A program made the translations under genes and the position numbers. Below the pieces are notes generated by a model. It searched no databases. It had not been told where the DNA came from and saw only the letters and a list, made by a program, of their open reading frames with translations. Shown here piece by piece: positions 28,101 to 59,493 of a stretch of 64,000 nucleotides of DNA. The DNA is from Tubulanus polymorphus (Eukaryota; Animalia; Nemertea): positions 4,996,914-5,060,913 of the forward strand of contig NC_134034.1 in NCBI RefSeq assembly GCF_964204645.1, given 5' to 3'. Positions within the stretch are counted from its first letter, which is position 1; each line of letters opens with the position of its first letter.

Positions 28101-28830
28101 TCGATTTTCGAGGTTAAAAACTTCAGTTTATTTCCAAGAAACACGAACATTTTCCAATGCATTTCTCAACATCGTACGAGACTAACAAGCACGGGCCGAT
28201 CGCACGTGCGATAATTTGAAGGCTTAACGACTGTTCCTCATTTCATTAAATCCTCCAAAAGTTGAAATACGAATGAAGGTCGAAAAAATCAATATTTCAA
28301 AATTTGTAATCATGTTCAAAGATGATTCGTCCCCGGTATGCCGATAAACACGTTGAAACACTTGATACACAAATTCAACAATGCGAAGAAGTTGTTGGAA
28401 ATTGTTTAACCATGAAGATGTAAAATCGTAGAAAAGGTGCCCGGTCTGGCGGATATTTGACGTGGTTTTGTTTGTAGGTTATGTCGATGGCCGCGAACGC
28501 TGACTACAGCGAGGCGGGCAGCTTTAGGTTAGTGCACACGTGTGGATTGTGTTTACAAACAGAATGTCGTTCATGCGCACGCAACAAAATGGCGGAAACT
28601 CTCTTGTGAAAAAAAATCGTTTATTCTCTTGGCGATTTTTTTTCACAAGAGTTTCCACCATTTTGAGCTCAGACCACTATTCCAAAATCTTCTATATCCT
28701 AATGTAAAAACAAGAAATTCGAGAGTTTAGTTCATATATAAGAGCGTAAATTCAGGGAAAATCCTGCTTATGGCTCATAGGCCAGCATCCTAGCTACGTA
28801 TTAAAGTAATTTTCGCCCCACATACCCAAC

Positions 28831-29412
28831 AGTAATAGGGGTAATAGGCTTTCATACCAAAGGTCGAACGGTCGAGCCCATTAAAAAACAAAATATTAAA
28901 AAACTATAATATATTTTCATAACCGCGTGCATTTTATATCAAAACTAAGTATTTATTCTAAGATATCAATAATATAAAAAGCATATTGTATTAAATCAAT
29001 TGGTCGCTCCACTTCGCTACCGCTCCGCTCCGCGACCAATTGATTTAATTACAATACACAAATTCAAATAATCAAATATATTCAAATGATAATAATTATT
29101 CTATTATTCAACTGAAATGCACGCGGTTATGAAAATATATTATAGTTTTTTAATATATGTTATTAATGAACTCGATCATTAAACCTTTGATATGAAAGCC
29201 TATTACCCCTATTACTCTTAAAATATTCATATATATATGAATAACATTTAAATCATTGAACTTCTTAAATCAATTTTAATAAAAAATATAGTATTAAAAT
29301 GGAAGCAAATAAGTACTACTGCCCAACATGTAATATCGATATAGATAAATCTCAAAAAGCAAGACACAATAAAACTATAACACATTTAGAGAATAAATTG
29401 AAACTAGAATAT
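28831..29412. repeat. Left terminal inverted repeat (582 bp); first 386 bp form an imperfect palindrome
   Basis: Reverse complement of 46832-47413 with about three substitutions seen by eye. 28831-28855 pairs with 29192-29216. Confidence 0.95.
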
Positions 29413-29550
29413 TTACAGTTATATTCAGAACAGTTAACAAAGGGAAAGAAATTTATTGAATTATGGAATAATGATCCAAATAATGAACAATACGTTGAGG
29501 AATTTGATATCAAGGAATCGAAACAACTTATCAAAAGCAGCGAGGAATGA
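29299..29550 (+). CDS. Chimeric 83-aa ORF: TIR-duplicated pPolB N-terminal zinc finger fused to an HNH C-terminal remnant
   Basis: The first 38 aa match the pPolB start (one C/Y difference). LQLYSEQLTKGKKFIELWN resembles LQLYLDQLDKAKTFVELWN at the end of 29630-30298. Confidence 0.6.
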   Translation: MEANKYYCPTCNIDIDKSQKARHNKTITHLENKLKLEYLQLYSEQLTKGKKFIELWNNDPNNEQYVEEFDIKESKQLIKSSEE

Positions 29551-29629
29551 AAAAGGATGACGTTGGTCGAAGAAATGGAAGAGGATTCTAAAATTATTAA
29601 CCAATTTAGTAAAAAAATACGTATAATAA

Positions 29630-30298
29630 ATGGAACCAGAACAACCACAAATTATCAATATTACAAATAACACTGGCGTTATAAACATATACTACAAGAA
29701 GTGTTCTAAATGTGAATTAGATAAATTAGCTATAACAGAATTTAGTAAGCGTAAGATTAGCAAAGATGGTTTTCAAAATTGTTGTAAAACTTGTGCTAAA
29801 CTATACACCAAACAATATCGAGAAGATAATATAAAACATTATAATTATTATATGACAAAATATATGAGAGAAAGATATCAAACAGATCTTAATTTTAGAT
29901 TGAAACAATGTTTAAGGACTAGAATAACACAATTATTCAACAAAGAAACACATTCAGAAACACTATCTAATCTATTGGGTTGTTCAGATGAATTTCTCAA
30001 ATCATGGATAATATATCAATTCGACGATAAAATGAATATAGATAATTATGGTGAATACTTTCATATTGATCACGTGTTGCCGATTTCTAAATTTGATATG
30101 AGTGATGATTATAATAAGAAGCTAATCTGGAACTGGAGAAATTTAAGGCCTTTAGAAAAGAAAGAAAATATAATTAAATCCAATAAACTAGATTTACAGT
30201 TATATTTAGATCAACTGGATAAAGCAAAGACATTTGTTGAATTATGGAATAGTATTTCACAGAATCAACCGCATTCTGAGGTTTTGATCAGTGGTTAG
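29630..30298 (+). CDS. HNH-family endonuclease with N-terminal CxxC zinc ribbon (large-DNA-virus type)
   Basis: CSKC...CKTC, LLGCS, FHIDHVLP...NWRNLRPL...EN..KSNK motifs; TAAATG start. Confidence 0.8.
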   Translation: MEPEQPQIINITNNTGVINIYYKKCSKCELDKLAITEFSKRKISKDGFQNCCKTCAKLYTKQYREDNIKHYNYYMTKYMRERYQTDLNFRLKQCLRTRITQLFNKETHSETLSNLLGCSDEFLKSWIIYQFDDKMNIDNYGEYFHIDHVLPISKFDMSDDYNKKLIWNWRNLRPLEKKENIIKSNKLDLQLYLDQLDKAKTFVELWNSISQNQPHSEVLISG

Positions 30299-30646
30299 AA
30301 AGCTGGCAATTCTATTTGAGCTTTGTATGTATATAATACATAGCTTTTGCTTACTACTAAAACATATGTTGCCAAATATATCTTGTTTTCAATTCTAAAG
30401 AATTAATTAACTTCATCACAAAGAACATCTGTGCAGAAATAATTAGTTTTGTCGAACGTGCGCCACATCGGCAGTTAGAAATCAACTTTCACATACATAT
30501 TAGGCATCGGATATTCTCTCTCAAAACACAGTTTACAGTTCTAAATCTAAATGTAAGTACCGTTTTTTGTAGTTATTATGAAGTAGGGAAACCTTTAAAC
30601 ATATTTAAGTACAGTAATTCATTTTCACGATATCTTTTAGATTAAA

Positions 30647-31101
30647 ATGGAACACAAAGATCAACCAGAAATTCTAAGCCAACCAACGGATAAGGAACGA
30701 TTGCTACTGGATAGTGAAACTCAGGAATCAATAGAAATGGAGGATGAAACTCTCGTAATTGACGAACAAACTTCACAAAATTACAAGAACATTTGGACTA
30801 TCATCAAGAAATGGTGAAAATTCTGAGTGATGTAATACATAATAAACAATTACCGCGCGAACTACAATTACCAAAATTACCAGCAACGCGACTCAAATTG
30901 CTGTTGGGACTCAAAGAATCGAAAACTAAGAAAATGAGTGGAGATATCAGTGCCGGTTTTCTTTCAAAACTGAGAAGAGTAGGTAGATTAATAAAATATG
31001 AAAAATTCAAAATATTAGGATTAGCATTTAGTGAAGTAGTCAGATATTTACCAGAAATTGAAGAAATGATTGGAAACAATCCAGTAATTAAAGAATTCTA
31101 G
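30647..31101 (+). pseudogene. Frameshifted hypothetical gene
   Basis: TAAAATG start at 30647 (MEHKDQPEIL...). One apparent frameshift near 30780 would join it to ORF 30793-31101. Confidence 0.5.
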
Positions 31102-31201
31102 ACAAAATTATAAATTATAACACTGAAGGTCTTTGTAATATAGATATCAAAAATGTAATCTCGATTGTATATATCTGTTTTAATATTGTATTGATTACTG
31201 T

Positions 31202-31427
31202 TAACTGTGTATTGCGCAATAACCGGTCCGATTGAACCGCATTTCTATTGTTCTCCATTGTTCTACTATTGATCGTTGTTGACTGAAACAGCTGCTCAAT
31301 ATTGATTGGTTACAGTTCTATATTTGAATGTTGTAGTTTACAGAATAAAAATATAACTGTGTATTGCGCAATAACCGGTCCGATTGAACCGCTTTTCTAT
31401 TGTTCTCCATTGTTCTATTATCGATCG
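31202..31427. promoter_or_regulatory. Duplicated 74-bp putative enhancer containing ATTGCGCAAT
   Basis: Direct repeats at 31202-31275 and 31354-31427 in a non-coding gap; each has the perfect palindrome ATTGCGCAAT followed by AACCGGT. Confidence 0.45.
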
Positions 31428-31836
31428 CTAAAATTTGTATAATAAATATATGTGTTTATGAAATTAGATTTCCACCAGTCGTTTCTTTGAATTTATTTTC
31501 AGTTGAGGATTTGATATCGAGGATCCGAAATGACTTATCTGGACAGTTATAATTACTGCTCCTATAGATAGACAATAGTAGTGAGATAATCTAAATCCTA
31601 ATTTAAATAAAATATAATAAAAATTACATACCTTCAACTATCTATTATTTCTATTATATTTTTAATATTTTCTTTTCAAAAGAGAATACTTTATATTTTG
31701 AATAGATTTGAATAGAAATTCTTTAAATTCAAATAGCTAGTATCAGTAGTCAATACTAGAATTCTTTAGCTTTAACTAGCTAGTATCATTTGAAGAATAC
31801 TTATAACATTATTCTTATTAAATTTCTCTAATATAA

Positions 31837-32442
31837 ATGTCTAAGAAATCGAATAAGAATAATGTTAAAGTTGAAAAAACTTTGGAAGATTTAGGTTTAA
31901 CAGATGATAATGATAATGTGGCAACTAAATGTGATAATAAAATTGATAACAATATTGATTACGAGTACTATTTATATTGTAAGCATCATCTAGAACTATT
32001 AATTGCGAGTGGAAAAACTAAAGAGTTTATTGGTAAAACAATAACTTTTCAAGAATTAGATAATATGAACAAAGAAAAAGTAATCAAATATTTTAAGATT
32101 TATGAAGAGTCAAGATTAGCTAGAATAAATGATTCTATTTCAGATGGTATTGTCAAATGTTATTCTAAGTTATGTAACCAGTTAATACCAATTGATGATG
32201 AAAATAAATTATATAATGATTTGAAAAATGACTACTTAGTTATGACTGAATTACAAAAATGGGTTGGATATGCTTCATTCCAATTAGGATCGGTTATGAC
32301 GTTGATTTCTACTGGTGTCATAACATTTTCGAACATTAAACCTATGGAATATAAATCAGGTAAGAACGAAACAGATGTACTACAACAAAACATCGAAACA
32401 GAAAATGAATCAGAACAAAAATTAACTAAAATAAATGAGTGA
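31837..32442 (+). CDS. Hypothetical protein, 201 aa, with a C-terminal hydrophobic segment
   Basis: Intact ORF with TAAATG start, overlapping the next gene. Confidence 0.75.
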   Translation: MSKKSNKNNVKVEKTLEDLGLTDDNDNVATKCDNKIDNNIDYEYYLYCKHHLELLIASGKTKEFIGKTITFQELDNMNKEKVIKYFKIYEESRLARINDSISDGIVKCYSKLCNQLIPIDDENKLYNDLKNDYLVMTELQKWVGYASFQLGSVMTLISTGVITFSNIKPMEYKSGKNETDVLQQNIETENESEQKLTKINE

Positions 32443-32809
32443 TAGCGTTAAGAAAAAGGCTAGATCCGAGAAACAAATTAAATGGGCAAGAGAATTAGGT
32501 AAAAGATCTTCAGAATTAAAAAAAGCTAAGAAAAAGAAATTAACTGATATAAATGAATCACCTGATGATGCCGTACGACACCCGCACGGTGGTATTGATT
32601 CAAATAATAATCCATCTGATTCTTCTAATGTTGGAAGTAATTATAAATTATATATTACAATTGGATTAGTAACAGTTATTATATTATCCGGTGTAATATA
32701 TAAATCAAAATTCAAATCCAATGATAAAGATGATTCTAATGATAATAAACCCATCATACCAGAAAATAAATCAAATGAAAATAAATCTAAAATATTATTA
32801 ATGGATTAA
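32435..32809 (+). CDS. Small basic single-pass membrane protein, 124 aa
   Basis: Lys/Arg-rich N-terminus; hydrophobic stretch LYITIGLVTVIILSGVIY; TAAATG start. Confidence 0.75.
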   Translation: MSDSVKKKARSEKQIKWARELGKRSSELKKAKKKKLTDINESPDDAVRHPHGGIDSNNNPSDSSNVGSNYKLYITIGLVTVIILSGVIYKSKFKSNDKDDSNDNKPIIPENKSNENKSKILLMD

Positions 32810-32812
32810 AAT

Positions 32813-33901
32813 ATGATGAAAAAAGAACAATATTTAAGAGATTTGTATTATAACCCAGAAAGTGAAGTATCATATTCAAGTGTTTCGGAATTATGGGATA
32901 AAATTAAATCTGATAAAGAAAAAATAAAATATAGTGAATTAAAATCATGGTTACAAAATCAACCCACATATCAAATTCATAAAAAGATGGATAAAAAATA
33001 TTTAACAAGAAAAGTAATGGTTTCATATATCGATCAACAATGGCAAGCTGATTTAATTGACATGAAAAACTTAGAAGAATATAACAAAGGATATTTTTGG
33101 ATACTAAATGTTATAGATATATTCAGTAGATACGCATGGAGTATCCCGATTAAAAATAAAACTGGTATAGAAGTTACAAATGCTTTTAAATCTATATTTA
33201 AAGAAGCTATTCCAGATAAGATACAATTTGATGAAGGTAAAGAATTTTATAACAAACATTTTAAAAAACTATTATCTGATAACGATGTAGAATATTTTTC
33301 AACACACTCAGATAAAAAAGCATCTATTATAGAAAGATTTAATAAAACATTGAAAACTAGAATGTGGAAATATTTCACCGCTAATGAAACATATAAATAT
33401 ATCGATGTGTTAGATGATTTAGTGAAAGGTTATAATAATTCTAAACATAATTCTATAAATATGAAACCTATACAAGCTAGAAAAGAAGAAAATTCAGAAA
33501 TAGTTTGGAATAATTTATATGGAGCGTTTGTTACACACGATTTCGGTGAACCTAAATTTAAAATAGGACAACACGTTAGAATTTCTAAATATCGAAAAAC
33601 ATTTTATAAAGGTTATACCCCTAATTTTACAGAAGAAATATTTAAAATTAAAAAGATAATATTAACTAAACCATTTGTTTATAAATTGTTTGATTTAAAA
33701 GATGAAGAAATATTAGGTTATTTTTATGAACAAGAATTATCATTAGTACCAAATCCAGATGAAATAGAATACAAAATAGAAAAAGTATTGAAAACAAAAA
33801 CTCTTAAAGGAAAAAAGTATTCTTTGGTGAAATATAAAGGATATGATGATAAATTTAATGAATGGATTTTATCTAGTAAAATTAAAAGAATAAATGAATA
33901 A
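32813..33901 (+). CDS. int: Retroviral-like (RVE, DDE) integrase with C-terminal chromodomain
   Basis: WQADLIDM, IDIFSRYAW, QFDEGKEF and IERFNKTLK motifs; the C-terminal YKIEKVLK...LVKYKGY...NEWI is chromodomain-like; intact. Confidence 0.95.
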   Translation: MMKKEQYLRDLYYNPESEVSYSSVSELWDKIKSDKEKIKYSELKSWLQNQPTYQIHKKMDKKYLTRKVMVSYIDQQWQADLIDMKNLEEYNKGYFWILNVIDIFSRYAWSIPIKNKTGIEVTNAFKSIFKEAIPDKIQFDEGKEFYNKHFKKLLSDNDVEYFSTHSDKKASIIERFNKTLKTRMWKYFTANETYKYIDVLDDLVKGYNNSKHNSINMKPIQARKEENSEIVWNNLYGAFVTHDFGEPKFKIGQHVRISKYRKTFYKGYTPNFTEEIFKIKKIILTKPFVYKLFDLKDEEILGYFYEQELSLVPNPDEIEYKIEKVLKTKTLKGKKYSLVKYKGYDDKFNEWILSSKIKRINE

Positions 33902-34508
33902 AGATTTATTTATATTTGAACCGCATAATATGTTAGTTACTGGAGTTACAAATTGTGGTAAAACACATTTCATATTAGACTTGTTAGAAACTATTTATAA
34001 AAATCATTTTGATAATATAATATTATTCTGTCCTACTTATGAAATGAATGAAACGTATAATAGAGATATAGTTTTTAAAGATAAAAAGTTTATTATATTA
34101 AATTCTAAAACAGTGAAAGATAATTTAGATAATTGTATAAAAATTGCATTAGATATTTATAAAGGATCTAATACATTATTTATTATTGATGATTGCGCAA
34201 ATTTACATGATTCTAAAATTAGAGAAAGTGAGTTGTGTTATTTAGCTTTCTCTGGTAGACATTTTGGGATAACAACTTGGGTTTTAAATCAGAAATATAA
34301 TTCAATTGTGAAAGATTTTAGAGAGAATATAAGATTTCTAGTTTTATTCTACAACAAAGATAGAAAATCTATGCAACAATCATTGGAAGAAAATCAAATT
34401 ATACCTACTGAATTACATGATGAATATATGAATAAATTAAAAAATAATAAAGGTTCAAAATTATTACTGAGATTACAATTTCCTTATGAATATAAATTTA
34501 TAAAATAA
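33894..34508 (+). CDS. A32/FtsK-HerA family genome-packaging ATPase
   Basis: Walker A GVTNCGKT, Walker B FIIDD, SGRH and LNQ motifs; intact. Confidence 0.92.
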   Translation: MNKDLFIFEPHNMLVTGVTNCGKTHFILDLLETIYKNHFDNIILFCPTYEMNETYNRDIVFKDKKFIILNSKTVKDNLDNCIKIALDIYKGSNTLFIIDDCANLHDSKIRESELCYLAFSGRHFGITTWVLNQKYNSIVKDFRENIRFLVLFYNKDRKSMQQSLEENQIIPTELHDEYMNKLKNNKGSKLLLRLQFPYEYKFIK

Positions 34509-34524
34509 AATCCTAATTCAAAAT

Positions 34525-35095
34525 ATTATAGAATTCACTGTATATTGATGGATGAGTGGATGAATTGGATGAATTGGATGAATTGGAAGAGTGGATGAAT
34601 GGAAGAGTGTAATAATATATAATTTACATATGTTTTTTATTTTTAAAACAGTAAGAGTTCGATTTGAAGATGTCATATAATAATAAATATATTTTTATAA
34701 AATAATAAAATGACAGATAATAAATGTCATATAATAATAAATATATTTTCATAAAATAATAAATAATAAAATAATAAATAATAAAATGATAAATAATAAA
34801 TATATTTTTTATAAAATAATAAATAATAAAATGATAAATAATAAATATCATATAATAATAAATAATAAATATCATATAATAATAAATAATAAATGTCATA
34901 TAATAATAAATATATATTGTGTTAAATTTAATAAAGAATAAAAATATTATATTTATACTCATACTATTCTTCCAATTTATGTGTTAAAAAGTAAAATATA
35001 TATATTATTATACTCATCCACTCTTTCACTCATCCAATTCATCCAACTCTTCCAATTCATCCATTCATCCATCAATATACAGTGAATTCTATAAT
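34525..35095. repeat. Long inverted repeat enclosing an AT-rich minisatellite at the convergence point of the two gene arms
   Basis: ATTATAGAATTCACTGTATATTGATGGATGA.TGGATGAATTGG (from 34525) is the reverse complement of the sequence ending at 35095; AATAAATAATAAA repeats lie between the arms. Confidence 0.85.
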
Positions 35096-35099
35096 CTTT

Positions 35100-36167
35100 T
35101 TAATTTTCATTTTCATATTTTTCTTTAAGCTTATTGTATTCTAAATATATATCCATTTGCATTTTCTTTGATATAATTCCTGAATGATTCCCGAGTTTAT
35201 AATTCCTGAATGTTTTTCTTGAAAATATTTTTGGAATATAATTTTCGATTTCAGTTTTAGATGGATGTTTATTTAAAAATTCTCTAAAATCATCATATTT
35301 AAGTTCAAATAAGTTCATTGCATAACTTACATTTGGTTTAAAGTTATCTAACTTTTTCAATATGGTAACTATATCATTACTCAAGAAATAATCTATAAAT
35401 GTTTTTCTATACCACCGATAATCTAATATATTCTTATTATTAAATTTTGAATTTATAACTCTTGGATTTTCTATTACATTATCTGTACCAATATGTTTAA
35501 TTGAGTATTTATGATTCAATTGTTTATCATATATTACATATTCTTTACATTTTTCACACCAAGATTTAAATACTTTTATTGCATGGGCTGAATCATATCC
35601 ACTTTTTGTTTTTAATTTATAATGTTTTGCCCAATTAGCCTTTGTTATACATTCATTACAGAAAGCACAATAATTCTGATCCTCTTTACATTTATCTTTA
35701 TATATATTGGCATATGTTTTTACTAATTGTAAAATATGTTCATCTTTTTTGATGTGTAATAAATAATCATTATAATTATCAAAATCTTCTTCACAATACA
35801 TACATCTGATGTTATCTTTTGGTTGAACATTTGATTTTTCTATTTTAGGTTCAATATTATGTTCTATTTTAGGTTCAATATTATCATCATTCGATGTAGA
35901 AGGTATAACATTATCTTCTATTTTAGGTTCAATATTATTTTCTATTTTAGTTTCAATATTATCTTTTATTTTAGGTTCAATATTATCTTCTATTTTTATA
36001 TCAATATAATTATTACGTTCAATTAAATATTCTTTGTATTGATTTAATTCATTTAATAAAAATGTTCCAATATATTCATTTATTCTTTTATAAGGTATTA
36101 CATAATACAAATCATCATTGATTTCTTTATCAGCTTTGATTCTTTCATATACTTTACCTCCTTCCAT
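35100..36167 (-). CDS. Multi-zinc-finger (C2H2/U1-like) protein with IEPKIE.N repeats
   Basis: CMYC..H....H, CAFC..H and CEKC..H...H motifs; tandem 8-aa repeats; intact 355 aa. Confidence 0.75.
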   Translation of the reverse strand: MEGGKVYERIKADKEINDDLYYVIPYKRINEYIGTFLLNELNQYKEYLIERNNYIDIKIEDNIEPKIKDNIETKIENNIEPKIEDNVIPSTSNDDNIEPKIEHNIEPKIEKSNVQPKDNIRCMYCEEDFDNYNDYLLHIKKDEHILQLVKTYANIYKDKCKEDQNYCAFCNECITKANWAKHYKLKTKSGYDSAHAIKVFKSWCEKCKEYVIYDKQLNHKYSIKHIGTDNVIENPRVINSKFNNKNILDYRWYRKTFIDYFLSNDIVTILKKLDNFKPNVSYAMNLFELKYDDFREFLNKHPSKTEIENYIPKIFSRKTFRNYKLGNHSGIISKKMQMDIYLEYNKLKEKYENEN

Positions 36168-36199
36168 TTATTATATATATTTTTATTAAAGTTAAAATT

Positions 36200-37447
36200 T
36201 TAATACATAACACTATCTAATTGTGAATTTATAATATTTAATTGCGCGTCAGATATAATATAAATATGCATTTTAAAATTTTTGATTCCCTTTTTCTTTT
36301 TCATGAATAATTGTATTCCATCTTTTGTATTTTGTAGTTTTTTTCCAGAACCATGTAATGAATTATCTTCAGTTGTTCTAAAATCTAACCATAATGCATA
36401 TTTATTACCGGTATAATAATCAATTTGATTAATGTTACAATTTTCAAATGATTTTACTTTTTCATTCATAAAATGTTTTTTAATTTCTACCCATTGATCT
36501 ATCATTCTCATTCCTTGACAAAATATTTTATTTGCTATTCCTTCGATGGTTATTTCTACTTTTGTTATTTCAGGATTATAATAATTGTCAACATTTATTG
36601 CGCCATTAGTATACGTTCCAATAGTAAAAAATATTAATATACCTTTAATAGATCTTCTAGGAAAGTTAATATTCTCATTTATTATTTCATCATTTGCATT
36701 AATAGTTACAGTTTTAAATTTATCAATATAATCATATAATAATGAAAATCCTTGATTGTATTTAGTTTGAATTATACTTGAAATATTTTCATCAGTTACT
36801 GTATCATATTCTAAACATATATTCGATAATTTATAACTCATATCTTTATTAACGCTAGATATTACAATTTCATTTACAGGAGCAAATGTTATCTCAAATA
36901 TAACATCTTCTTGAATTGCGTATTTATATAAAGGTGCATTATTATTTATCAATTCAAAGTCTAATGGAATTTTATATTTGTTTCCATATATACTTTTTAT
37001 TAATTTATCTACATCATTTGTTAATATTGCGCTATTAGCTTCTGATCTTAATTTATTTTGGTTTTCTGATTGGATGCCTTGAAATATCATATTATTTCTA
37101 TTTTCTTTAGTTAACCATAAATCTTTATAATGCATAAATGAATTATAATCATCTAATGAGAAAACTGTTTCTGGACCAATCTTTATAGTTAACTTTTTAA
37201 TCAAATATCTTCCAACATTATCAACGACATAATTATTATTATTACCGATTACTTTTATATCGGCTGATAAATAAATACTGTTTGGAACATAAAAAGTATT
37301 TTGTGTTAATCTCGGAATTCTAACGTATAAAGTTTCATCGGGATTAATATTTGAAGGGTTATGAGTAATTATATGATGTGATCTTTCTGCTTTAATAGCA
37401 TTAGATATTCTATGATTCTTAGAAGGATTGATATAACTCCCACTCAT
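36200..37447 (-). CDS. Putative double-jelly-roll major capsid protein
   Basis: Intact 415-aa beta-rich soluble protein of MCP size, in a Polinton with ATPase and penton-like genes. Assignment is by size, context and strand pattern, not by a profile search. Confidence 0.7.
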   Translation of the reverse strand: MSGSYINPSKNHRISNAIKAERSHHIITHNPSNINPDETLYVRIPRLTQNTFYVPNSIYLSADIKVIGNNNNYVVDNVGRYLIKKLTIKIGPETVFSLDDYNSFMHYKDLWLTKENRNNMIFQGIQSENQNKLRSEANSAILTNDVDKLIKSIYGNKYKIPLDFELINNNAPLYKYAIQEDVIFEITFAPVNEIVISSVNKDMSYKLSNICLEYDTVTDENISSIIQTKYNQGFSLLYDYIDKFKTVTINANDEIINENINFPRRSIKGILIFFTIGTYTNGAINVDNYYNPEITKVEITIEGIANKIFCQGMRMIDQWVEIKKHFMNEKVKSFENCNINQIDYYTGNKYALWLDFRTTEDNSLHGSGKKLQNTKDGIQLFMKKKKGIKNFKMHIYIISDAQLNIINSQLDSVMY

Positions 37448-37471
37448 TTATTTAACAAAAAAATTAATTAT

Positions 37472-38950
37472 TTATTTTTTGATATTTTTTGATATCATAT
37501 TCACTAACCCAAAAATAATAGCACTTACAACTGTAATTAAAAATAAAATAATATGTTCAGCAGCAAAGTTAATAATGTTTCCTGCAGATTTCAATATAAA
37601 ACCAACAATTGAAGCAATAACTCCTGGTAAAGCTGCAGCAGATTTTTTAGATAGTTCCCATAAATATTTTGCTAATTTCTTTAAACCATCTTTAACTTTA
37701 TCTTGTATAGAATTATTTCCTGGGGGTTTATCTGGTTTATTTGGAGTGGGAGTAGGAGTAGATTTTAAAGCATTTGATATTGCTAAACCAATTGTTGTAA
37801 ATAACATAGTTACAGCTGTTAGAATTGAGAGAATTGTTATTCCTTCTAATTTAAATAATAATCTTATTCTGTCTTTTAATGATATTTCAGAATTTGGTTT
37901 AATCAACAAATCTTTAAAAATAACTTTTAATCTATTTATATTATAATCATATGATTTTAATAATAATTTAATTTCTTCTTTTTGTAATTCTATGTTATAT
38001 TCTAAATCATCTATTTCTTTTTCTAAATATGCATTTCTTTTTTTAAATTCAATTTCTTCAATAACTTTATTATCTCTATCTAATTTTAGTTGTTCTATTT
38101 CTTTATTTTTATCAGTTAATTCTTTTTCTAAAGTTCTAATTTTAAAATCTCTTATACTTTTATCATGCGCAATTTTATCAGATGCAAGTCTTAAACTAAT
38201 AATTTCTTTAATTGCTTTATCAGAAAATATATTTAAATCTTCTAATTCTTGTTTTGTTGCATCAATTAATCCATTCGGTAAAAGTTTTTCAATTGGAATT
38301 TTATTTGATTTAAGTTTACTAGTTTTGGAAGTTATATTCTGTTCAGAACTTGTTTCTGGTTCTAAATTATTATCGATTGTTTCAAATAATTCATTAATTC
38401 TTTGTTTAAATACTCTTTCATTTTTAATAATTTCTTCTTGTGTTACATCTTCTATTTCATTACTATTTCTTATTCTTTTAATTCTAGATAGTAATGAGTC
38501 AGACTTAAGCAAAGTTGATTCTGCTAATATTTTGTTTTGTTTTTTATAAGAGATATCAATATAATAATCATCTTTCAAATGATAATAATATTCACCATCT
38601 AAAGATTTTAATTCTTGTACTAAAAGTCTGGCGCCTCTAGCATTGATATTATATCCAGATTTTTCAAATATAGGTTTGAAATTATAAATATATTCATTAT
38701 ATTCTAAATTTTGTTTTACTAAATCTGGATTTTCATTTTCAGGATTTATTCTCGATCTAGTTCTTCTATCAAATTCATCTGTTGATTGACCTTTAGAACC
38801 ACTATCTGCTAAATTAGAATTATATGCTGATTCATCATCATTATCAATATTAGTTTCATTAAAATCGGGTTGTGGTTTATCATCAATATATCCTTCATTA
38901 TTATTTCCCATGTTTTCCATTTCATAATCTTCTCCACCTTCTACATCCAT
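37472..38950 (-). CDS. Coiled-coil protein with multiple C-terminal hydrophobic/amphipathic helices (putative virion membrane protein)
   Basis: Acidic N-terminus, heptad-rich middle, hydrophobic ITILSILTAVTMLFTTIGLAI, Pro-rich linker, then AALPGVIASIVGFIL and IILFLITVVSAIIFGLV. Confidence 0.8.
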   Translation of the reverse strand: MDVEGGEDYEMENMGNNNEGYIDDKPQPDFNETNIDNDDESAYNSNLADSGSKGQSTDEFDRRTRSRINPENENPDLVKQNLEYNEYIYNFKPIFEKSGYNINARGARLLVQELKSLDGEYYYHLKDDYYIDISYKKQNKILAESTLLKSDSLLSRIKRIRNSNEIEDVTQEEIIKNERVFKQRINELFETIDNNLEPETSSEQNITSKTSKLKSNKIPIEKLLPNGLIDATKQELEDLNIFSDKAIKEIISLRLASDKIAHDKSIRDFKIRTLEKELTDKNKEIEQLKLDRDNKVIEEIEFKKRNAYLEKEIDDLEYNIELQKEEIKLLLKSYDYNINRLKVIFKDLLIKPNSEISLKDRIRLLFKLEGITILSILTAVTMLFTTIGLAISNALKSTPTPTPNKPDKPPGNNSIQDKVKDGLKKLAKYLWELSKKSAAALPGVIASIVGFILKSAGNIINFAAEHIILFLITVVSAIIFGLVNMISKNIKK

Positions 38951-38966
38951 TTACATAATAAAAAAA

Positions 38967-40268
38967 TTAAAATTTAAAATATAATATTCCTCCGATTACA
39001 ATTCCTATACAAGTTATAGCTAATTTAGTATTTTCATGGGATTTATTATCATCATTTTGTTTAATTATATCATGTTGAATAATATCAGTTTTAATATCTT
39101 CTGATGTATTGTAATCTTTTATTTTAGAATCATTATTTAATTTAATATTCTTAGTTTTAGTTTCAGTTGATTGAATGTGTTTTTTATTTTTTTCACCTTC
39201 CATTAATTTTGGAGCAGTAATAATCTTTTTATTTATATCATTTAATCCAAATGAATTATTTATTGTTGCAGTTTTAATTAGATTATTATAACCAATTATA
39301 TTTCCCATCTTTAATACTAAATCATTAGAAATAATTAATAGATTAGGGCCTATACAATAATTAAGTCTTACATGAGATTTATCTAAATAATTTTGATATC
39401 TTATAATGTTTTCTGGAATCGATCTATTTTTATCATTATGAATTGAATCTTCAAATAAAACTTTAAACTGTTTCTGCGCATCGAATGAAGTGTTATCATT
39501 TCCAATTATTGGGGATCTTGTTTCAACTTGCGCACCTAGAATACAAATTAAATAAGTTCTAATAGATTGATTTATTCTTTGTATACCTGATTTTGTAAAA
39601 CCTTCACCATTTTTTAAAATGAAATTAACCCAACCATTATTATTATCAATTTTATAATTATGATAAGCTGAAATTCTATGCATATAATCAATTCTTTTTA
39701 TTTCAAACTCTTCACCAACACCTTGCAATTTACCATGCGCTCTAAAATCGGAATTAATATTTATATTAAATTCATTACATATTTTATAAAACTTAGATAG
39801 ATTAATATTATTATCCAATTCTTTGAAATATTTAGACCCGGGTAAAGGACATTCTAATTCATTTAATATTATTCTGATTTGAAAATATGTGTGAAATCTA
39901 AATATTGTGTGAATTAATTTTAAATCAGAATACTTCAAATTTTTATCTAAGTTATTTAAATGATCATTCCAACTTATTCCACATCCTGTTGTTGCACAAT
40001 AAACAGCAAAATCTAATTGATTCTGCCAATATTTCATATTAGATTTTACTTTATATATATGGTATTCATCTCGGGTAAAAGTAACTTCATATGTATTAAA
40101 TATATTTTCCATTTTAGAAATAAAAAACTGTGATTCAGTAACATAAATTTCTAAATTAGTTAATGAATTTAAAACTACATTTCTATATGTAATATTTTTC
40201 TTAAAATCTATTGCAGGAATATTATATTTAATTGATTTATTATATTGGAAAGCTTTTGGAAAACCCAT
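38967..40268 (-). CDS. Conserved 433-aa protein with C-terminal membrane anchor
   Basis: Intact. WQNQLDFAVYCATTGCGISW core shared with element 2; tail LAITCIGIVIGGILYF. Confidence 0.8.
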   Translation of the reverse strand: MGFPKAFQYNKSIKYNIPAIDFKKNITYRNVVLNSLTNLEIYVTESQFFISKMENIFNTYEVTFTRDEYHIYKVKSNMKYWQNQLDFAVYCATTGCGISWNDHLNNLDKNLKYSDLKLIHTIFRFHTYFQIRIILNELECPLPGSKYFKELDNNINLSKFYKICNEFNININSDFRAHGKLQGVGEEFEIKRIDYMHRISAYHNYKIDNNNGWVNFILKNGEGFTKSGIQRINQSIRTYLICILGAQVETRSPIIGNDNTSFDAQKQFKVLFEDSIHNDKNRSIPENIIRYQNYLDKSHVRLNYCIGPNLLIISNDLVLKMGNIIGYNNLIKTATINNSFGLNDINKKIITAPKLMEGEKNKKHIQSTETKTKNIKLNNDSKIKDYNTSEDIKTDIIQHDIIKQNDDNKSHENTKLAITCIGIVIGGILYFKF

Positions 40269-40284
40269 TTATATAATTAAAAAA

Positions 40285-40719
40285 TTAATAATTAACTAAT
40301 TCTTTTAATAATTTATCTTGTTCTTCAACTGTTATATGACCATTTAAACTTATTATATAATCTAGTGTATTCTTCAATTTATTAATTTCTTTTATATTAG
40401 TTTTAATTTTTTCTTTATTACTTATTATATTTAATTTTGAACTTATACCAGTTAAAACACTTGAACTTAATCCTAATACACCAATTGATATAGCTAAAGG
40501 TGTTAATGGACTGAATATTGCTAGAAATGTTATTACAGAACTAATTGTAACCGAACCACTAATAATAAGATAATATATAATTTTAATTTTTAAATATTTT
40601 TTCTTTTTTATCTTTAAGTCACTTTCAAATTCTAATATTTGTTTTTCTAAATATGTTTTTAATTTAGTTTTATTTATATCATGAGGAATAATATCAATAC
40701 TATCAACTTTATCTTCCAT
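40285..40719 (-). CDS. Two-TM membrane protein, 144 aa
   Basis: Hydrophobic hairpin flanked by coiled-coil-like segments; homolog at 61316. Confidence 0.78.
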   Translation of the reverse strand: MEDKVDSIDIIPHDINKTKLKTYLEKQILEFESDLKIKKKKYLKIKIIYYLIISGSVTISSVITFLAIFSPLTPLAISIGVLGLSSSVLTGISSKLNIISNKEKIKTNIKEINKLKNTLDYIISLNGHITVEEQDKLLKELVNY

Positions 40720-40738
40720 TTATTTAGAAAAAAAATTA

Positions 40739-41161
40739 CTAATTAGTAAATTTATAAGCAACAAATATAACAATAACTGTTCCACCTAAAATCCATATTA
40801 TTTCATATTTCTGTTGTTCTTTACTTGGGGTATAATAATCTGATAATTTAGGTTTGTATAGATGTAATTTTTTTTTATTGGTTACCGCGTTATATAAACT
40901 CATTGCATCATCAACTGATTGAAAATCTCTATGTGAAATCTTCTGATCATATAATTCTTTATTGATGTAATCCATATAGTTTTGTCTCTTTTCTCTATAT
41001 TCTTCTGCAGCTTTATTGTATTTCTCTTACGCTAAATTGTGTCTTCTTTGTTCTCCTAATGAACTATTTTTATCAATATGTTTAAATAAATAACCACCAC
41101 CAGTAAATGCTAAAGCGTTAACAATTGCTGATCCTATAATAGTTATAATTGCAGAAGCCAT
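40739..41161 (-). pseudogene. 140-aa membrane protein gene with one in-frame stop
   Basis: Collinear with intact 60873-61295; TAA at 41027-41029 replaces TTA (Leu). Confidence 0.85.
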
Positions 41162-41186
41162 TTATTTAGCAAAAAAAATTATACAT

Positions 41187-41408
41187 TTATATGGGAGGAA
41201 TATATTTTTGTTTTTCTAAATAATCAATAGTTAAATTAGATAAAGTAACTGCTAACGTTAACTTTAAAATATCATTTATATCAAATCTATCAACATTAAC
41301 ACTTCCCATTTTGAATACTTTTTTTAATACCATTGAATAACCAACAGTTCCAACTGATAGTAATGCGCCATTATATAATCCAGTTATTATCCACTTATTA
41401 TCACTCAT
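41187..41408 (-). CDS. Small hydrophobic protein, 73 aa
   Basis: Differs from 60627-60848 by one residue; two hydrophobic segments. Confidence 0.8.
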   Translation of the reverse strand: MSDNKWIITGLYNGALLSVGTVGYSMVLKKVFKMGSVNVDRFDINDILKLTLAVTLSNLTIDYLEKQKYIPPI

Positions 41409-41750
41409 TTATTTATCAAAAAAATTACTATCATCAAAATATTTAGTTAACTTATTTATGATTAATTCAACATTTATTTCATTACTACTTTTATGATTAT
41501 CATATATTTTGGATAATATGTTTTTGATATCTTCAATAATTCCATCTTCATTTAATTCATAATATTCTAAAGGTGATTTAATTAAATCAATTACTTTTTC
41601 TATATTATACTTTTCTTTATCAATCATTGATGCATTGTTAAATGATTTACTTTTTATATCAGTAATTACATCATTTAGTTTAATTCTCATTTCTTTACCA
41701 TGTTTAAAATCAAACCCAAAACATATACTCGGTCCAACAGTTATATTCAT
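41409..41750 (-). CDS. Hypothetical protein, 113 aa
   Basis: Homolog at 60267-60626 with conserved ends. Confidence 0.78.
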   Translation of the reverse strand: MNITVGPSICFGFDFKHGKEMRIKLNDVITDIKSKSFNNASMIDKEKYNIEKVIDLIKSPLEYYELNEDGIIEDIKNILSKIYDNHKSSNEINVELIINKLTKYFDDSNFFDK

Positions 41751-41767
41751 TTATATAGTGAAAAAAA

Positions 41768-42526
41768 TTACTCTCTACATCTTATAACTAATTCATAAAT
41801 TACAGGGAAATTATTTAAATCAATTAAGTATCCATTATGATTTCTAATTTCTAATCTAAAATTATTAAATTTAGGAATGCAAGGTTTGAAATCACATTCT
41901 GTTAAATTATAATTTATTTGCGTTCCAAATTCTTTAACATTTTTTAATGGTAAAATATTTAATATACTAGAATTACATGTTGTATCTTTAGTTGCTTCGA
42001 ATGTTTTTGTTGGGTCAATTAAATTGCAATAAATATAAAAATGTGTAAAAGGTATTATATTTGAAATACCTTCTACGTTTACTGTAACAACATCTGGTTC
42101 AATTCCTAGCAATTTAGCTATAGGTTTTTTTACCATAAATGCATGTTGACTTTCATCAAATACCTTTATTTTAATTCTATTTGAGCTATCACTTTTTATA
42201 AATCTTATTAAAAATTTATCATCTTTTCTAATTTTCAGCCGTGCTCTACGATTAATTTCTTGAGATAATGTTTCTAAATTATATAATCCTGGTCTTAGAA
42301 ATAGATGAAACCATTTATTTATATTTCTAACATGAATTAAAAAAGTATTATGTTCAATAGTTTTATTCGATATATTGTAAAAAGAATTACATAAACTTAT
42401 ATTTACTAATTTTAAATCTACACAATTCTTGAATTCTCTATCTAATTGTACTAATAAATTATGAGATTTATAATTTGTAAGTTTTCTAGAATCAACAAAT
42501 ATTCTGTATTCTTTTAATTCCGCCAT
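41768..42526 (-). CDS. Putative minor capsid (penton-like single jelly roll) protein
   Basis: Pattern IFVDSR...NSFYNI...PGLYN...LG...YIYCNLI...LEIRN.NG.LIDLN.FPV.YEL, typical of Polinton/virophage minor capsid proteins. Confidence 0.7.
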   Translation of the reverse strand: MAELKEYRIFVDSRKLTNYKSHNLLVQLDREFKNCVDLKLVNISLCNSFYNISNKTIEHNTFLIHVRNINKWFHLFLRPGLYNLETLSQEINRRARLKIRKDDKFLIRFIKSDSSNRIKIKVFDESQHAFMVKKPIAKLLGIEPDVVTVNVEGISNIIPFTHFYIYCNLIDPTKTFEATKDTTCNSSILNILPLKNVKEFGTQINYNLTECDFKPCIPKFNNFRLEIRNHNGYLIDLNNFPVIYELVIRCRE

Positions 42527-42543
42527 TTATTTTACATATTTTC

Positions 42544-42885
42544 TTATTCAAAATCTATTTCATGGTGCCCTTTTTCATTCTTACCTTTGTATACGAAATA
42601 GAAATCTCCAGAACATAATTCTTCTAGATCTTCACTTGATAATCTATGAAATCTATCTGGTAAATAAGTTCTGAATTTATATTTATTTCCTTTTAATCCT
42701 TCATATTCTAAATGAATTATTAATTTATCTCCATATTTATTAGTAATTGTTTCAATGTTAGTAATTAAATATTTCTTGTGAATTGTTAATTCTGTTAACT
42801 TTTTAAATTTATAATCTACAGATTTGACGCTTGAAGTATCTTTAATTCTATCTAAGAATTCACTGTGTACTTGTTTACTCTCCAT
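42544..42885 (-). CDS. Small beta-rich protein next to pPolB, possible OB-fold ssDNA-binding protein
   Basis: FKKLTEL..YLIT....NKYG...YLPDRF; conserved in element 2. Function is inferred. Confidence 0.6.
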   Translation of the reverse strand: MESKQVHSEFLDRIKDTSSVKSVDYKFKKLTELTIHKKYLITNIETITNKYGDKLIIHLEYEGLKGNKYKFRTYLPDRFHRLSSEDLEELCSGDFYFVYKGKNEKGHHEIDFE

Positions 42886-42913
42886 TTATTATACAAATTT
42901 TTATTGAAATTGA

Positions 42914-45900
42914 TTAACACGCTAGAATCCTTTTCATAATCTCATTTTCTTTTGTTTCTTCTCTTTTGAATTTTATATATTCATCTAAATTGCAACCATA
43001 GGCGACTGTGTGGATTCCATCATCTAAAATATATCTTTTATCATCAAATGGGTTTAGACTTATCTTCTCTATCTCTTCAATATATATTTCATGATCTTCA
43101 GATCTTAAACATTTCATTTTATGTTTTCTAACTTCTTCATTAAATATACAATTGATGAAATCTTTGAAATGAATATTCTTTTCTACTACACTTTTGGTTA
43201 TTCCTTTTAACTTTTTAGCTTCATGTTCTTTAGTTTTATATGAATACATTTTAGATCTAATACCAATGAACTCTATCATTTCTTCACCGCCTAATTCATC
43301 CTTAAACTTACCAGGAACTTTTTTATTATCATTGCTAAATAGTTCATGATTTTTTGGATAGTTACTAAAATCAAAATGGTGTTTTAATATTTTTAAATCA
43401 TCTTTTATATTATCACTTTTTATCTTTAATATGTACGCATCAGTATCTAGATATAATATTTCTATATTCTTTTCCCCAAAATGGGGTTGCAATACATTAT
43501 AATAGAATTCATACATCAATAGCTTTGAAATTTCTAAAACTGCAGCTCCAACATAAATAGGTTTATTGAACTTCATAGAAGTTCTTTTTAATTTAACTGC
43601 AGCTAAATTTTCATCGAATATTCTATTCCCTATGAATTTCGGATACGATTGCAAATGTCTAATTCTTTTACCATTACTAACTAACTCAATATCATTTCTA
43701 TTTCTAATATTTTCACATGTTTTTCCATAGAACGCATTATTCATCAGTTTAAAGTAATCCTTCTCAAAATCAGTTTTAGCTTCAGTTCTCTGTGTAGTAT
43801 TAAAATCTATATATTTTTCTAACCACTTAGATTGATTAAATGAAATATATCTATGTACTTTTTTTAATATCATTCCTTGATTCAAATAGAATTTTAACAT
43901 TCTATAATGTACTACATAATTATATTTATCTTCTTGAGTTACCATTAACTTTTCAGTATGAATATGATTTTCAGGTTTAATTCTTTTTTGATAATTTGAT
44001 AATTCTTTATGTTTAACAGTTTTATGTTCGGGACAGTAAGCTAGATTTCTAGATTTGAATTTAATATTTTCAGGGTATTCTAAATCTATAACAAAGAACT
44101 AACCAGTATCTGAATCATCTGCAATATCTAGAATTCTTTTCTTCCAATCAAATTTATCAATTTGTAAAACTTCAGTTATTTCAAACATCCCATAAGGTTG
44201 TGGTTCCATCATTGCCCAACCATAAAGATTATTTGCATCTATGTATAATAATTTATATCCAGGATTATCATTTACATTGAAATATCTATCACCCAATACA
44301 CCTGAAACACCTCCTCTTATAGATTTTTCAAATAATAGTAATTGATCTATATTTGTTAACAAATCCATTTTTATATTTGTAAATTTTAATCCACAATCCC
44401 ATGTTAATCCTGGGCTAGAATAACAATGACAAGGATCAATATTAAAATATTTTAGGTTTACATCTCTAAACCTTTCGAATATATCGGTTAATAATAATAC
44501 ATCTGATTTTAAATATAAATCTACTAATTGTCCATGATTTTTAATTTCGAAATGATTCCAAATATTCAATGTTCTATTATAGACTTCATCTTTAACATAT
44601 TCATATTTTAATTCATCATAGAATTGTTCTTTCAATAATTCAGTTATTTTAAAATCATTATGATTTTTATAGAAAGAATATGGAATTGCACCTTTATATC
44701 TCATTAATTTAAAATCATCATAATTTGGGTAATATTCTTTTAATATCTTTAATTCATCATCAACTAATGATTTTGATAAGTTATCTAATGAACTATTTAA
44801 AAATCTATATAAATCTATAAATCTTAGACAACCAAATTGGAATGATATATAATTCTCAGATGTTTTAGCTAACATTCTAAATTTATAAGTTGGTATTTTA
44901 TCTTTTGATTTATTTGAATTTATTATTTCTATTTCATTATTAATTTCTTCTATTTAATGACACAGTTGTTTAATGAATAAATGCGCGTCATACCCCGATA
45001 AATTGTGAAATATAATGGGGACAAAATTTACTTTTTTAGCTTGCAAATTACAATTCTCATGTGCAGCGCCTCTAAATTTACCATTCAAATGATCATGGTC
45101 TCTTACTTTTTTATCTTTATAATTAAATAGTTTTTCACAATAATAACATTTATCTGCAAACGCAAATTCTTCTTTATCTTCTTCTGTCATAATTATTTCT
45201 TTATTTGTATTCAATAATTTACTAAATCTTATTTCATATTCAATTAATAAGTCACAAAAATGATTGATAACATTTTCATTTCTATAATGATAATATTCAC
45301 TTTCAATTAGTTCTGGATAATCAGATTTAATATATAACCCGAAAGCTGCAGCTGATTGATGAATCTTTTTAATAGTATTTGTTTTTGGTGGTTCTTCTGA
45401 ATAATCACTTTCATTAGAATTTAATTTCTTTCTTTTATAATATATATCTTTTCTATCTTTATCTGTTAATTCTTTATTTAATGATTCAAAATCTCCATAT
45501 ATTACAAATGGTACTTTATTTTTGTAATCATATTTTTTGAATTCTAATATTTTATCTTTTTCATTTGGTAAAACTAATTTACAATAATCATGATTATCAC
45601 ATAGTTGTTTATGATTTAATAATGTACTTTCATTACTAAATTTATGTAAACATTTTCTACATAGATATATTTTATTATGGTGATCACTTTCTGTTCTAAA
45701 GAATAAATCTATTTGTTTAATCCACATATAATGATTCTCATAATATAGTATATCTATAACATCATTTGAATCATAATCTTTTGATAGGTATAAAGGTTCT
45801 AATGTATAATGTTTAATATTATTTCCTTTTGTATTTGGTAATTTAATTAAATCAAATACATTTATCTTTAAATTATTATCTCTTTCTATTTTTGGGATGT

Positions 45901-46945
45901 TTTTAATTCTAACAGGATACTTATCTATCTTATAATTATTTTCAAATTGTTTATAATGAGTTAATCTAAAACTATGTGTAATATCTTCTGTTGGATGTAA
46001 ACAACTTATTATAGCCCATATAAAACATTTATTATCAAAATTTTGTATATTTATTACACCATTAGTTTTAAATGGTAATTTAATATAACTTGTTCCATTT
46101 ATACTATCATCTTTATAATATGATAAATTATTTTCATCAATTGGTTTTGATTTAGTTAACTTATTATATTTTGTGTTATAAACATGTAAAGTTATAAATA
46201 TTATCTCATCAAATATTAAACCAGATCCTTCAAAATATTTCTCTTCTATTTTAGTTTTTATTTCATTATAACATTTATCTAATTTATCATCTATATGTTG
46301 TTTAGATATAATATGTTGTGAATGAGAATTTATATTATATATTGGTTTATCTTCAGATTTTATAAACTTTACTTTAACTGATATACTAATTTTAGGATAT
46401 TCAACATCTGTAATTATTTTTATTATTTCTTTCATATTTTCTAAATGTTTTTTATTTTCTTCTAATGTTTTACCTTTATGAAATTTAAACTCAATAGCTG
46501 CTGGACCAATATCACTTTTAAATGCTTCGGTTATCTCTATATCTTTTTTATTATCTAATGAATTAATATAATTTCTTACATCTTCCATGTATGGTCTTTT
46601 ATTGTTTAATTTATTTTTTATTCTTTTAATTGTCTTCTGTTTCTTATCATTATCATTATCAAAATAATCTTCACCTAAAATATCATTATTCTTATTTCTA
46701 ATATGACTTATAGATTTTAAATGTTCTTTATAATATCTTTTATCACTGAATGATTGATTACATGTATCACATTTGTATGTTTCTTTTTCATTCTTTAATT
46801 CTTCTAATTTAGTTTCTAATATATCATCCTTATATTCTAGTTTCAATTTATTCTCTAAATGTGTTATAGTTTTATTGTGTCTTGCTTTTTGAGATTTATC
46901 TATATCGATATTATATGTTGGGCAGTAGTACTTATTTGCTTCCAT
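42914..46945 (-). pseudogene. polB: Protein-primed family B DNA polymerase (1343 codons) with two in-frame nonsense mutations
   Basis: Exonuclease motifs YGDFES, FHNLSGYD, YLKSDV; polymerase motifs YIDANNLYG, KLMNNAFYGK, YLDTD. The three ORF pieces share one frame, split by TAA (44954-44956) and TAG (44099-44101) where element 2 has Lys and Tyr. Confidence 0.96.
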
Positions 46946-47413
46946 TTTAATACTATATTTTTTATTAAAATTGATTTTAGAAGTTCAATGATTTAAATGT
47001 TATTCATATATATATGAATATTTTAAGAGTAATAGAGGTAATAGGCTTTCATATCAAAGGTTTAATGATCGAGTTCATTAATAACATATATTAAAAAACT
47101 ATAATATATTTTCATAACCGCGTGCATTTCAGTTGAATAATAGAATAATTATTATCATTTGAATATATTTGATTATTTGAATTTGTGTATTGTAATTAAA
47201 TCAATTGGTCGCGGAGCGGAGCGGTAGCGAAGTGGAGCGACCAATTGATTTAATACAATATGCTTTTTATATTATTGATATCTTAGAATAAATACTTAGT
47301 TTTGATATAAAATGCACGCGGTTATGAAAATATATTATAGTTTTTTAATATTTTGTTTTTTAATGGGCTCGACCGTTCGACCTTTGGTATGAAAGCCTAT
47401 TACCCCTATTACT
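46832..47413. repeat. Right terminal inverted repeat (582 bp)
   Basis: Reverse complement of 28831-29412; includes the pPolB upstream region and first 38 codons. Confidence 0.95.
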
Positions 47414-55130: not shown

Positions 55131-55282
55131 AGTAATAGGGAATAAGTTGTTTCATACCAAAGGTCGAAGGGTCGAGCTCATAAAAAATAAAAAATAAATT
55201 CTCGCAAACTCGAATTTATTTTTTATTTTTTACTCACTCGCCCCTTCAACCTTTGATATGAAACAACTTATTCCCTATTACT
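55131..55282. repeat. 152-bp imperfect terminal palindrome of element 2
   Basis: AGTAATAGGGAATAAGTTGTTTCATA ... TATGAAACAACTTATTCCCTATTACT. Confidence 0.92.
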
Positions 55283-55361
55283 CTTAAAATATTCATATAT
55301 ATGAATAAAATATAAATGAATAACTTCTAAAATCAATTTTAATAAAAAATTTAGTATTAAA

Positions 55362-59476: not shown

Positions 59477-59493
59477 GAAAATATGTAAAATAA

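Follow-up and report, generated by a model that had tools for sequence, protein, structure and literature searches.

Poxvirus-like start signals on a Polinton-like provirus in the nemertean Tubulanus polymorphus

A question of long standing is whether animal Polintons are autonomous or depend on a helper virus, and an element in the nemertean Tubulanus polymorphus raises it in a concrete form: which transcription system reads its genes? The window analysed here is a 64,000-nucleotide stretch of the forward strand (RefSeq assembly GCF_964204645.1, contig NC_134034.1, positions 4,996,914 to 5,060,913), and all coordinates below refer to it. Its element 1 is an integrated Polinton-like provirus, and the features that place it among the Polintons and Polinton-like viruses (PLVs; Polisuviricotina in the broad sense) are 582-bp terminal inverted repeats (TIRs), a 6-bp target-site duplication (TSD), a DNA polymerase B of the protein-primed type (pPolB), an rve integrase, a double jelly-roll (DJR) capsid and an A32-like ATPase. 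At 23.5% GC, against 37.8% in the left flank, it is as extremely AT-rich as a preliminary description of the sequence had stated, and the statement that it encodes no RNA polymerase agrees with our searches, which detected none in element 1 (Pfam, custom profile and PDB, at the sequence level). That description went on to propose that a pox-like virus may transcribe the element from TAAATG signals at its gene starts. Our analysis points to dependence on a large DNA virus of some kind as likely, and to virophage-like dependence on a pox-type helper as the more specific reading that we favour with moderate confidence.

A bipartite signal at the gene starts

The 14 starts given as TAAATG in the preliminary description (29630, 31837, 32435, 33894, 36167, 37447, 38950, 40268, 40719, 41161, 41408, 41750, 42526 and 42885) are each an ATG with TAA directly before it. 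This amounts to 14 of 17 gene starts, compared with 48 of the 702 other ATGs of element 1 (Fisher p 1.6e-13), and TAA precedes 26 of 1227 ATGs in the host flank. When the upstream 25-mers were shuffled as a composition-matched null, a mean of 1.6 starts carried the motif and none of 200,000 shuffles reached 14. Two further starts, those of pPolB (46945) and of the open reading frame (ORF) at 30647, read TAAAATG as described. The integrase had been called the only exception, and it does lack TAAATG, yet its start reads TTAAAAT-ATG with TAAAAT still directly before the ATG, so that under a looser rule, TAAAAT at or adjoining the ATG for these three, all 17 starts comply. The base at -3 is T, with A there in just 3 of 17 starts; this is the reverse of a Kozak context, and the possibility that TAAATG is merely an A-rich Kozak context was therefore rejected.

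TAAATG could also act in translation as a stop-start signal for reinitiation on polycistronic RNA, or as an AT-rich start context, with no promoter involved. The minus-strand block of 11 co-directional genes would suit such a reading, as would the 41409/41408 junction within it, an exact TAA-ATG stop-start. This junction, at the start of a 73-aa gene, is the sole place where the TAA doubles as the stop codon of the upstream gene; at the other 9 of the block's 10 junctions TAA lies 16-32 bp beyond the upstream stop, and the stop-start reading was rejected on this ground. The motif also stands before divergent genes, the background for the first ATG after a stop is 6-10%, and AT-rich relatives use another start context (below), all of which makes a purely translational signal very improbable.

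The start signal is bipartite, joining TAA|ATG to an upstream T, and its upstream half (the T at -12 and the T- or A-tract) was overlooked in the preliminary description. T occupies -12 in all 14 TAA starts of the window (6e-6 from composition, for a position chosen after the profiles had been seen) and in 43 of 48 starts of the capsid clade described below; at -13 it is found in 9 of the 14 window starts, including all 7 T-tract genes, and in 38 of the 48 clade starts. A T6-8 tract lies upstream of these seven genes, the capsid gene among them (7/17 starts versus 14/702 other ATGs). Its end lies at -9 to -11 relative to the ATG in 7/7, while its beginning falls 0-8 nt past the upstream stop or, in one case, within coding DNA, and in the relative L010 it precedes a capsid gene in divergent placement. 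Because the distance is nearly constant to the ATG and variable to the stop, and because the L010 capsid gene is divergent, the tract tracks the start and not the stop. A poly-T terminator was rejected since the tract position follows the ATG and lies inside coding DNA once, and a splice acceptor since none of the 7 T-tract spacers contains an AG in its final 12 nt. Five other genes, including pPolB, have an A-tract instead (5/17 starts versus 5/702, a pattern picked post hoc). The features concerned are as follows.

28831..47413, no strand: element 1, integrated Polinton-like provirus with all ends present, 18,583 bp, recognised by TIRs, TSD and gene content
28825..28830, +: TSD CCCAAC; second copy at 47414-47419
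28831..29412, +: left TIR, first letters AGTAATAG; 582 nt, 99% complementary to 46832-47413
29630..30298, +: endonuclease VII/HNH-like gene, 222 aa (PHROG 1035, E 1.2e-15); A-tract, TAAATG
30647..31101, +: 56-aa ORF (TAAAATG) overlapped by a 96-aa ORF; no family match; possibly a decayed gene
31837..32442, +: 201-aa gene kept throughout the capsid family; no family match; TAAATG
32435..32809, +: 124-aa gene with a hydrophobic segment; TAAATG
32813..33901, +: rve integrase with a C-terminal chromodomain (PF00665, E 1.8e-9; PF00385, E 7.5e-5); TTAAAAT-ATG
33894..34508, +: A32-like packaging ATPase (PF04665, E 2.3e-12); TAAATG
35100..36167, -: 355-aa gene with Cys/His motifs and repeats; A-tract, TAAATG
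36200..37447, -: major capsid protein, DJR, 415 aa, ORF intact; T7 tract and TAAATAAATG
37472..38950, -: 492-aa coiled-coil gene with a hydrophobic C-terminus; T-tract, TAAATG
38967..40268, -: 433-aa family-core gene; T-tract, TAAATG
40285..40719, -: 144-aa membrane-type gene with two helices; weak SLATT match (PF18142, E 0.0095, below cut-off); T-tract, TAAATG
40739..41161, -: 140-codon family-core gene with one in-frame stop in this copy; T-tract, TAAATG
41187..41408, -: 73-aa family-core gene; T-tract within the coding end of the upstream gene
41409..41750, -: 113-aa gene; T-tract and TATAAATG
41768..42526, -: 252-aa gene, candidate minor capsid (penton); A-tract, TAAATG
42544..42885, -: 113-aa gene; A-tract, TAAATG
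42914..46945, -: pPolB, 1343 codons with two in-frame stops (PF03175, E 1.8e-10); A-tract, TAAAATG
46832..47413, -: right TIR, 582 nt, containing the pPolB A-tract promoter (TAAAATG)
55131..64000, +: element 2, an inverted and more decayed relative extending beyond the window end, with the same promoter cores at 9 orthologous starts

The predicted capsid fold is a double jelly roll (pLDDT 90; Foldseek E 7e-18 against iridovirus and chlorovirus capsids), with capsids of the nucleocytoplasmic large DNA virus (NCLDV)/PLV type as its closest structural neighbours. The candidate penton has Atlas look-alikes in unnamed Preplasmiviricota/Nucleocytoviricota clusters (score 0.98) and no PDB match, and nothing clear matched the fold of the 433-aa core protein (best Z 3.4; Atlas blank). 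The in-frame stops, two in pPolB and one in the 140-codon gene, indicate that this copy of element 1 is probably defective. Its left TIR carries a duplicate of the pPolB promoter and first codons, seen as an 83-aa ORF at 29299.

As the preliminary description had noted, the starts of element 2 follow the same rule (8/9 TAAATG; pPolB TAAAATG), but since its genes are orthologues of those of element 1 (79-95% DNA identity) they are not independent evidence. Element 2 also holds an exact 300-nt direct duplication (61829-62128 = 62406-62705), either recent or an assembly artefact. Retroelement remnants occupy the flank: the sequence between the elements (47414-54300) is decayed retroelement DNA with a DUF1759 (Bel/Pao-type) ORF (48317-49747) and, at 51641-52108, a weak endonuclease match. 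A long (TA)n microsatellite lies 0.8 kb left of element 1 (27854-28050), and a host repeat of about 154 bp forms dispersed arrays at 6567-7335 and 16300-16784. Within element 1, a 115-nt inverted repeat (34507-34621 and 34999-35113, 88%) directly follows the stop codons of the two convergent blocks of genes, so that both transcripts would share a purine-rich GGATGAA-repeat end, possibly a 3'-end signal; the repeat showed no folding (z 0.63), was not evident in the ATPase-downstream spacers of four relatives, and an Rfam search gave 0 matches.

Distribution of the signal among relatives

A capsid alignment search returned 163 confirmed metagenome matches, 80 of the 163 being listed, and capsid starts were read in 59. 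From 50 near-full-length capsids, two with stops were dropped, and a quick IQ-TREE of the resulting 49 rows, including the window and with a midpoint root and no named references, places the window capsid within a 13-row clade (SH-aLRT 99). The starts counted for this clade come from 13 loci, one near-duplicate having been excluded and two loci included by identity. TAA|ATG is found at 49 of their 60 called starts, compared with 74 of 1266 ATGs that come first behind a stop, and the three clade members with a GC content of at least 35% still have it at 9 of 11. Outside the clade it stands at 1 of 38 starts in eight AT-rich loci, where AAA|ATG is used instead at 27 of 38, and at 1 of 141 in eighteen GC-rich loci. 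The preliminary description would have given up its proposal had TAAATG been equally frequent in comparably AT-rich elements, which it is not; the rule holds in the clade regardless of GC and fails in AT-rich outsiders, so it is not accounted for by composition.

The rule is obeyed in addition by six more distant loci (18/21 starts), and among them branch five loci with TAA|ATG at 0 of 36 starts and TATA within 20 nt of the ATG at 23 of 36. From these weakly supported branches the trait seems to have changed more than once. The motif ATTTT-N7-12-TATA occurs at 11 of 36 starts of the five-locus group versus 8 of 536, and three loci without TAAATG encode a VLTF3-like gene, one above the Pfam cut-off and two below. 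Taken together, the TATA motif of this sister lineage and the VLTF3-like genes tie the family to large-DNA-virus transcription; VLTF3 has already been reported from some polintoviruses (PMC11131425).

Several relatives merit separate mention. In L015 and L019, members of the sister lineage with 47-49% GC, the ATTTT-N7-12-TATA at the starts resembles the late promoter of African swine fever virus (ASFV); each has a weak VLTF3-like gene, and L015 additionally has a Bcl-2 gene (2448-2858). In the eight AT-rich loci (L022, L023, L025, L026, L031, L059, L063 and L071) the AAA|ATG starts often read TATAAAAAATG, with a T bias near -12, possibly a third helper signature, and the VLTF3-like gene of L071 scores above the Pfam cut-off. 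The close relative L003 has a deoxynucleoside kinase gene (10343-10981, minus strand) behind a T-tract TAAATG promoter. L197, a 9-kb viral contig of 38% GC, is Polinton-like, with rve-chromo integrase, A32 ATPase and pPolB, and has TAA|ATG at 6/6 starts; the virophage contig L195 has it at 0/12. Searches of viral contigs and prokaryote genomes gave no capsid relatives, and 46 family capsids matched only the NCLDV profile Capsid_N, weakly, in 13 cases. Capsid relatives of 54% identity, in the cluster of P0045, are annotated on short contigs in several Bartonella sp. assemblies and are probably carried-over eukaryotic DNA.

Candidate transcription systems

If element 1 were an autonomous nuclear Polinton read by host RNA polymerase II (Pol II), T-N8-TAAATG would be a lineage-specific core promoter or initiator, possibly served by an unrecognised element-encoded factor. 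Its integration in a nuclear genome and its chromodomain integrase speak for this, as do several core genes without known fold. Host Pol II would, however, require either leaderless mRNAs or T at -3, whereas relatives lacking the motif have a purine there (101/141, 35/38 and 30/36 starts). In addition, neither the 28 ORFs searched in the window nor the 110 searched in relatives gave a match to TBP or TFIIB, and divergent starts just 19-64 bp apart each retain the motif. We regard this explanation as improbable.

The signal does correspond to published descriptions of poxvirus promoters. Vaccinia late promoters combine TAAATG with a T that is conserved 10 nt upstream among other Ts, while intermediate promoters are A-rich, without the conserved upstream T (PMC11980589; PMC5294985); TAAATG is retained in salmon gill poxvirus and an entomopoxvirus (PMC4542343, PMC3061580), and slippage at the poxvirus initiator gives a 5' poly(A) leader (PMC6211774). 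Judged against this vaccinia consensus, element 1 has both late-promoter features, TAAATG over the start codon (14/17) and T at -12 (14/14), and it shares with vaccinia promoters an upstream T within a T-run (late) or, tentatively, an A-rich core (intermediate), and a predicted lack of a 5' untranslated region. Unlike in vaccinia, these putative promoters stand on an integrated 18.6-kb element without a polymerase, and the T peak is at -12, one base from the -13 counted from the review wording. Helper-dependent transcription of pox type is supported by the bipartite promoter, its GC-independent conservation in the clade, a T at -3 that runs counter to Kozak, and the failure to detect an RNA polymerase gene. 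Parts of the preliminary proposal are weaker than it put them: the antiviral role is unsupported by the sequence, and TAAATG taken alone is not specific to poxviruses, since TAA|ATG stands at about 40% of the starts in an iridovirus-like genome.

This last result favours a helper among other large DNA viruses, invertebrate iridovirus-like or asfuvirus-like for example, whose promoters also end in TAAATG. Contigs that, from the gene families observed on them, we take to be iridovirus-like have TAA|ATG at 49/114 and 26/64 starts (counts slightly inflated, as the loci are centred on one gene family), and 10 of the 14 starts in the window carry AATAAATG. The iridovirus life cycle includes a nuclear phase, which would ease access to a provirus; ASFV late promoters are likewise bipartite; and for egoviruses and other pox relatives the literature passages searched hold no promoter description. 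Yet AATAA|ATG accounts for 71 of 75 iridovirus-like TAA starts versus 32 of 62 in clade and window (p 4e-9), the iridovirus-like AATAAA is also set back from the ATG (57/103 non-TAA starts), and T at -12 is found in 37 of 75 versus 57 of 62 (p 4e-8). In ASFV the initiator is TATA and the leaders are AU, a better fit to L015/L019 than to this clade, and no window gene matched the iridovirus-like loci. A non-pox helper thus seems unlikely, though less so than transcription by the host. The AATAAA of the iridovirus-like contigs (L133-L172), within 12 nt of the ATG in 84/114 and 44/64 genes, is a start signal for which our literature search found no description.

Under the pox-type reading, the two tracts might mark two temporal classes. 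In a held-out test on orthologues, T bias was retained for 17 of 20 in the T-class but A bias in only 4 of 9 in the A-class (class difference p 0.019; rows not independent), so that a late, T-tract class looks solid and an intermediate, A-tract class tentative. The poxvirus early consensus occurs twice in element 1, each time inside a gene and never at a start.

Several points weigh against a pox-type helper, the poor retention of A bias among them. The candidate penton gene falls in the A-class. The short spacers that the preliminary description took to leave no room for Pol II promoters are real (0-32 bp in the minus-strand block) but do not discriminate, since they are found in all relative groups (medians 17-53 bp), with a median of 37 bp in relatives with Kozak-type starts. 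The pox match is to review descriptions of vaccinia and not to a poxvirus genome comparison, and the best-conserved T is at -12 where the review wording, counted plainly, gives -13, a one-base ambiguity. Neither a pox RNA polymerase subunit nor VLTF3 was found in the window in the sequence-level searches, and the lack of TBP/TFIIB matches there counts on this side too. When viral contigs were scanned for the promoter pattern, 52 single matches and no helper candidate emerged. The pPolB of this copy is broken, and the sequence does not explain how a nuclear provirus would gain access to a cytoplasmic polymerase.

Proposed helper dependence and its meaning for animal Polintons

Promoter sharing between virophages and their helpers is already known. 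The late promoter of Cafeteria roenbergensis virus (CroV) lies upstream of all mavirus genes, and CroV reactivates the mavirus provirus (PMC6723459). Element 1 resembles mavirus and endogenous mavirus-like elements in its pPolB, rve, TIRs, nuclear integration and lack of an RNA polymerase, and mavirus in a single late-type promoter before nearly every gene (PMC6723459; bioRxiv 2025.10.09.676808). It differs in its capsid lineage, with no virophage major capsid protein (MCP) Pfam match, in having no protease by sequence profiles (none in element 1 ORFs or 110 relatives' ORFs), in a pox-type promoter where CroV has a TCTA motif, in its animal host and in a dependence that is here putative. Sputnik MCP profiles match the control L195 and not the element 1 capsid; by these profile searches element 1 lacks the capsid and protease characteristic of Virophaviricetes.

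PLVs found in entomopoxvirus occlusion bodies have been proposed as poxvirus hyperparasites (PMC11296320). Compared by description, they share with element 1 an A32 ATPase and a DJR capsid, and in some cases pPolB; unlike it, all four of them have a protease of the adenovirus type, and an rve integrase is not reported for the PolB-bearing two (PMC11296320). The main text of that paper contains no "promoter", "motif" or "TAAAT", and so no promoter analysis. With Maverick/Polinton groups 1/2 (Polintoviricetes, adintoviruses) element 1 shares a length of 15-20 kb, TIRs starting AGT, a 6-bp TSD, pPolB, rve, ATPase and capsid, but not a profile match to the cysteine protease (adenain-type) or the Polinton-type capsid. 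Among yeast linear plasmids, pGKL1 borrows the polymerase of pGKL2; the upstream conserved motif of these plasmids is found in 0 of 17 upstream regions of element 1. They resemble element 1 in pPolB, TIRs, AT-richness and a TAAAN initiator with slippage (PMC6211774), and differ in using an early-type upstream conserved sequence and in lacking the capsid and integrase genes found here. A possible affiliation of element 1 is with the small number of elements from animals that have been placed close to Aquintoviruses (bioRxiv 2026.06.19.733378).

If the helper is pox-type, the provirus would most likely stay silent until its cell is infected by a pox-like virus, because no start has an early-type promoter. 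The helper's post-replicative polymerase would then transcribe the element's genes, initiating within the AAA, and slippage as in vaccinia would add a poly(A) leader in place of the poor T at -3, which would explain why that base is tolerated. By the same analogy, expression of the A-tract genes (pPolB and others) would belong to the intermediate stage, and that of the T-tract genes (those for the capsid and, putatively, the virion membrane) to the late stage. As in mavirus, replication would be by the element's own pPolB, packaging by ATPase and capsid, and re-integration by rve; all steps beyond the promoter match we infer from these analogies.

In the open-access literature, main texts only, we found no report of pox-type promoters in Polintons, and the word "promoter" is absent from the available text of recent PLV frameworks and of the adintovirus, coral and egovirus papers. 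A promoter that names its helper's transcription system makes helper need testable, and promoter signatures could allow helpers and unseen pox-like viruses to be predicted from host genomes alone. We tentatively suggest, as a broader possibility, that one widespread Polinton-like provirus family of animals is made up of virophages whose lineages have switched large-DNA-virus helpers and keep the promoter signatures, this clade being an endogenous poxvirus virophage. The signatures would, with the same reserve, be pox-type T-N8-TAAATG here and asfuvirus-type TTTT-N-TATA with VLTF3 in the sister lineage. If true, the different signatures of sister lineages would record helper switching, and the integrated, mavirus-type virophage would gain animals in addition to protists as hosts and poxviruses in addition to mimiviruses as helpers. 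The distribution of the clade would then be a sign of poxvirus-like viruses still to be discovered and, possibly, of inherited antiviral elements in the hosts concerned.

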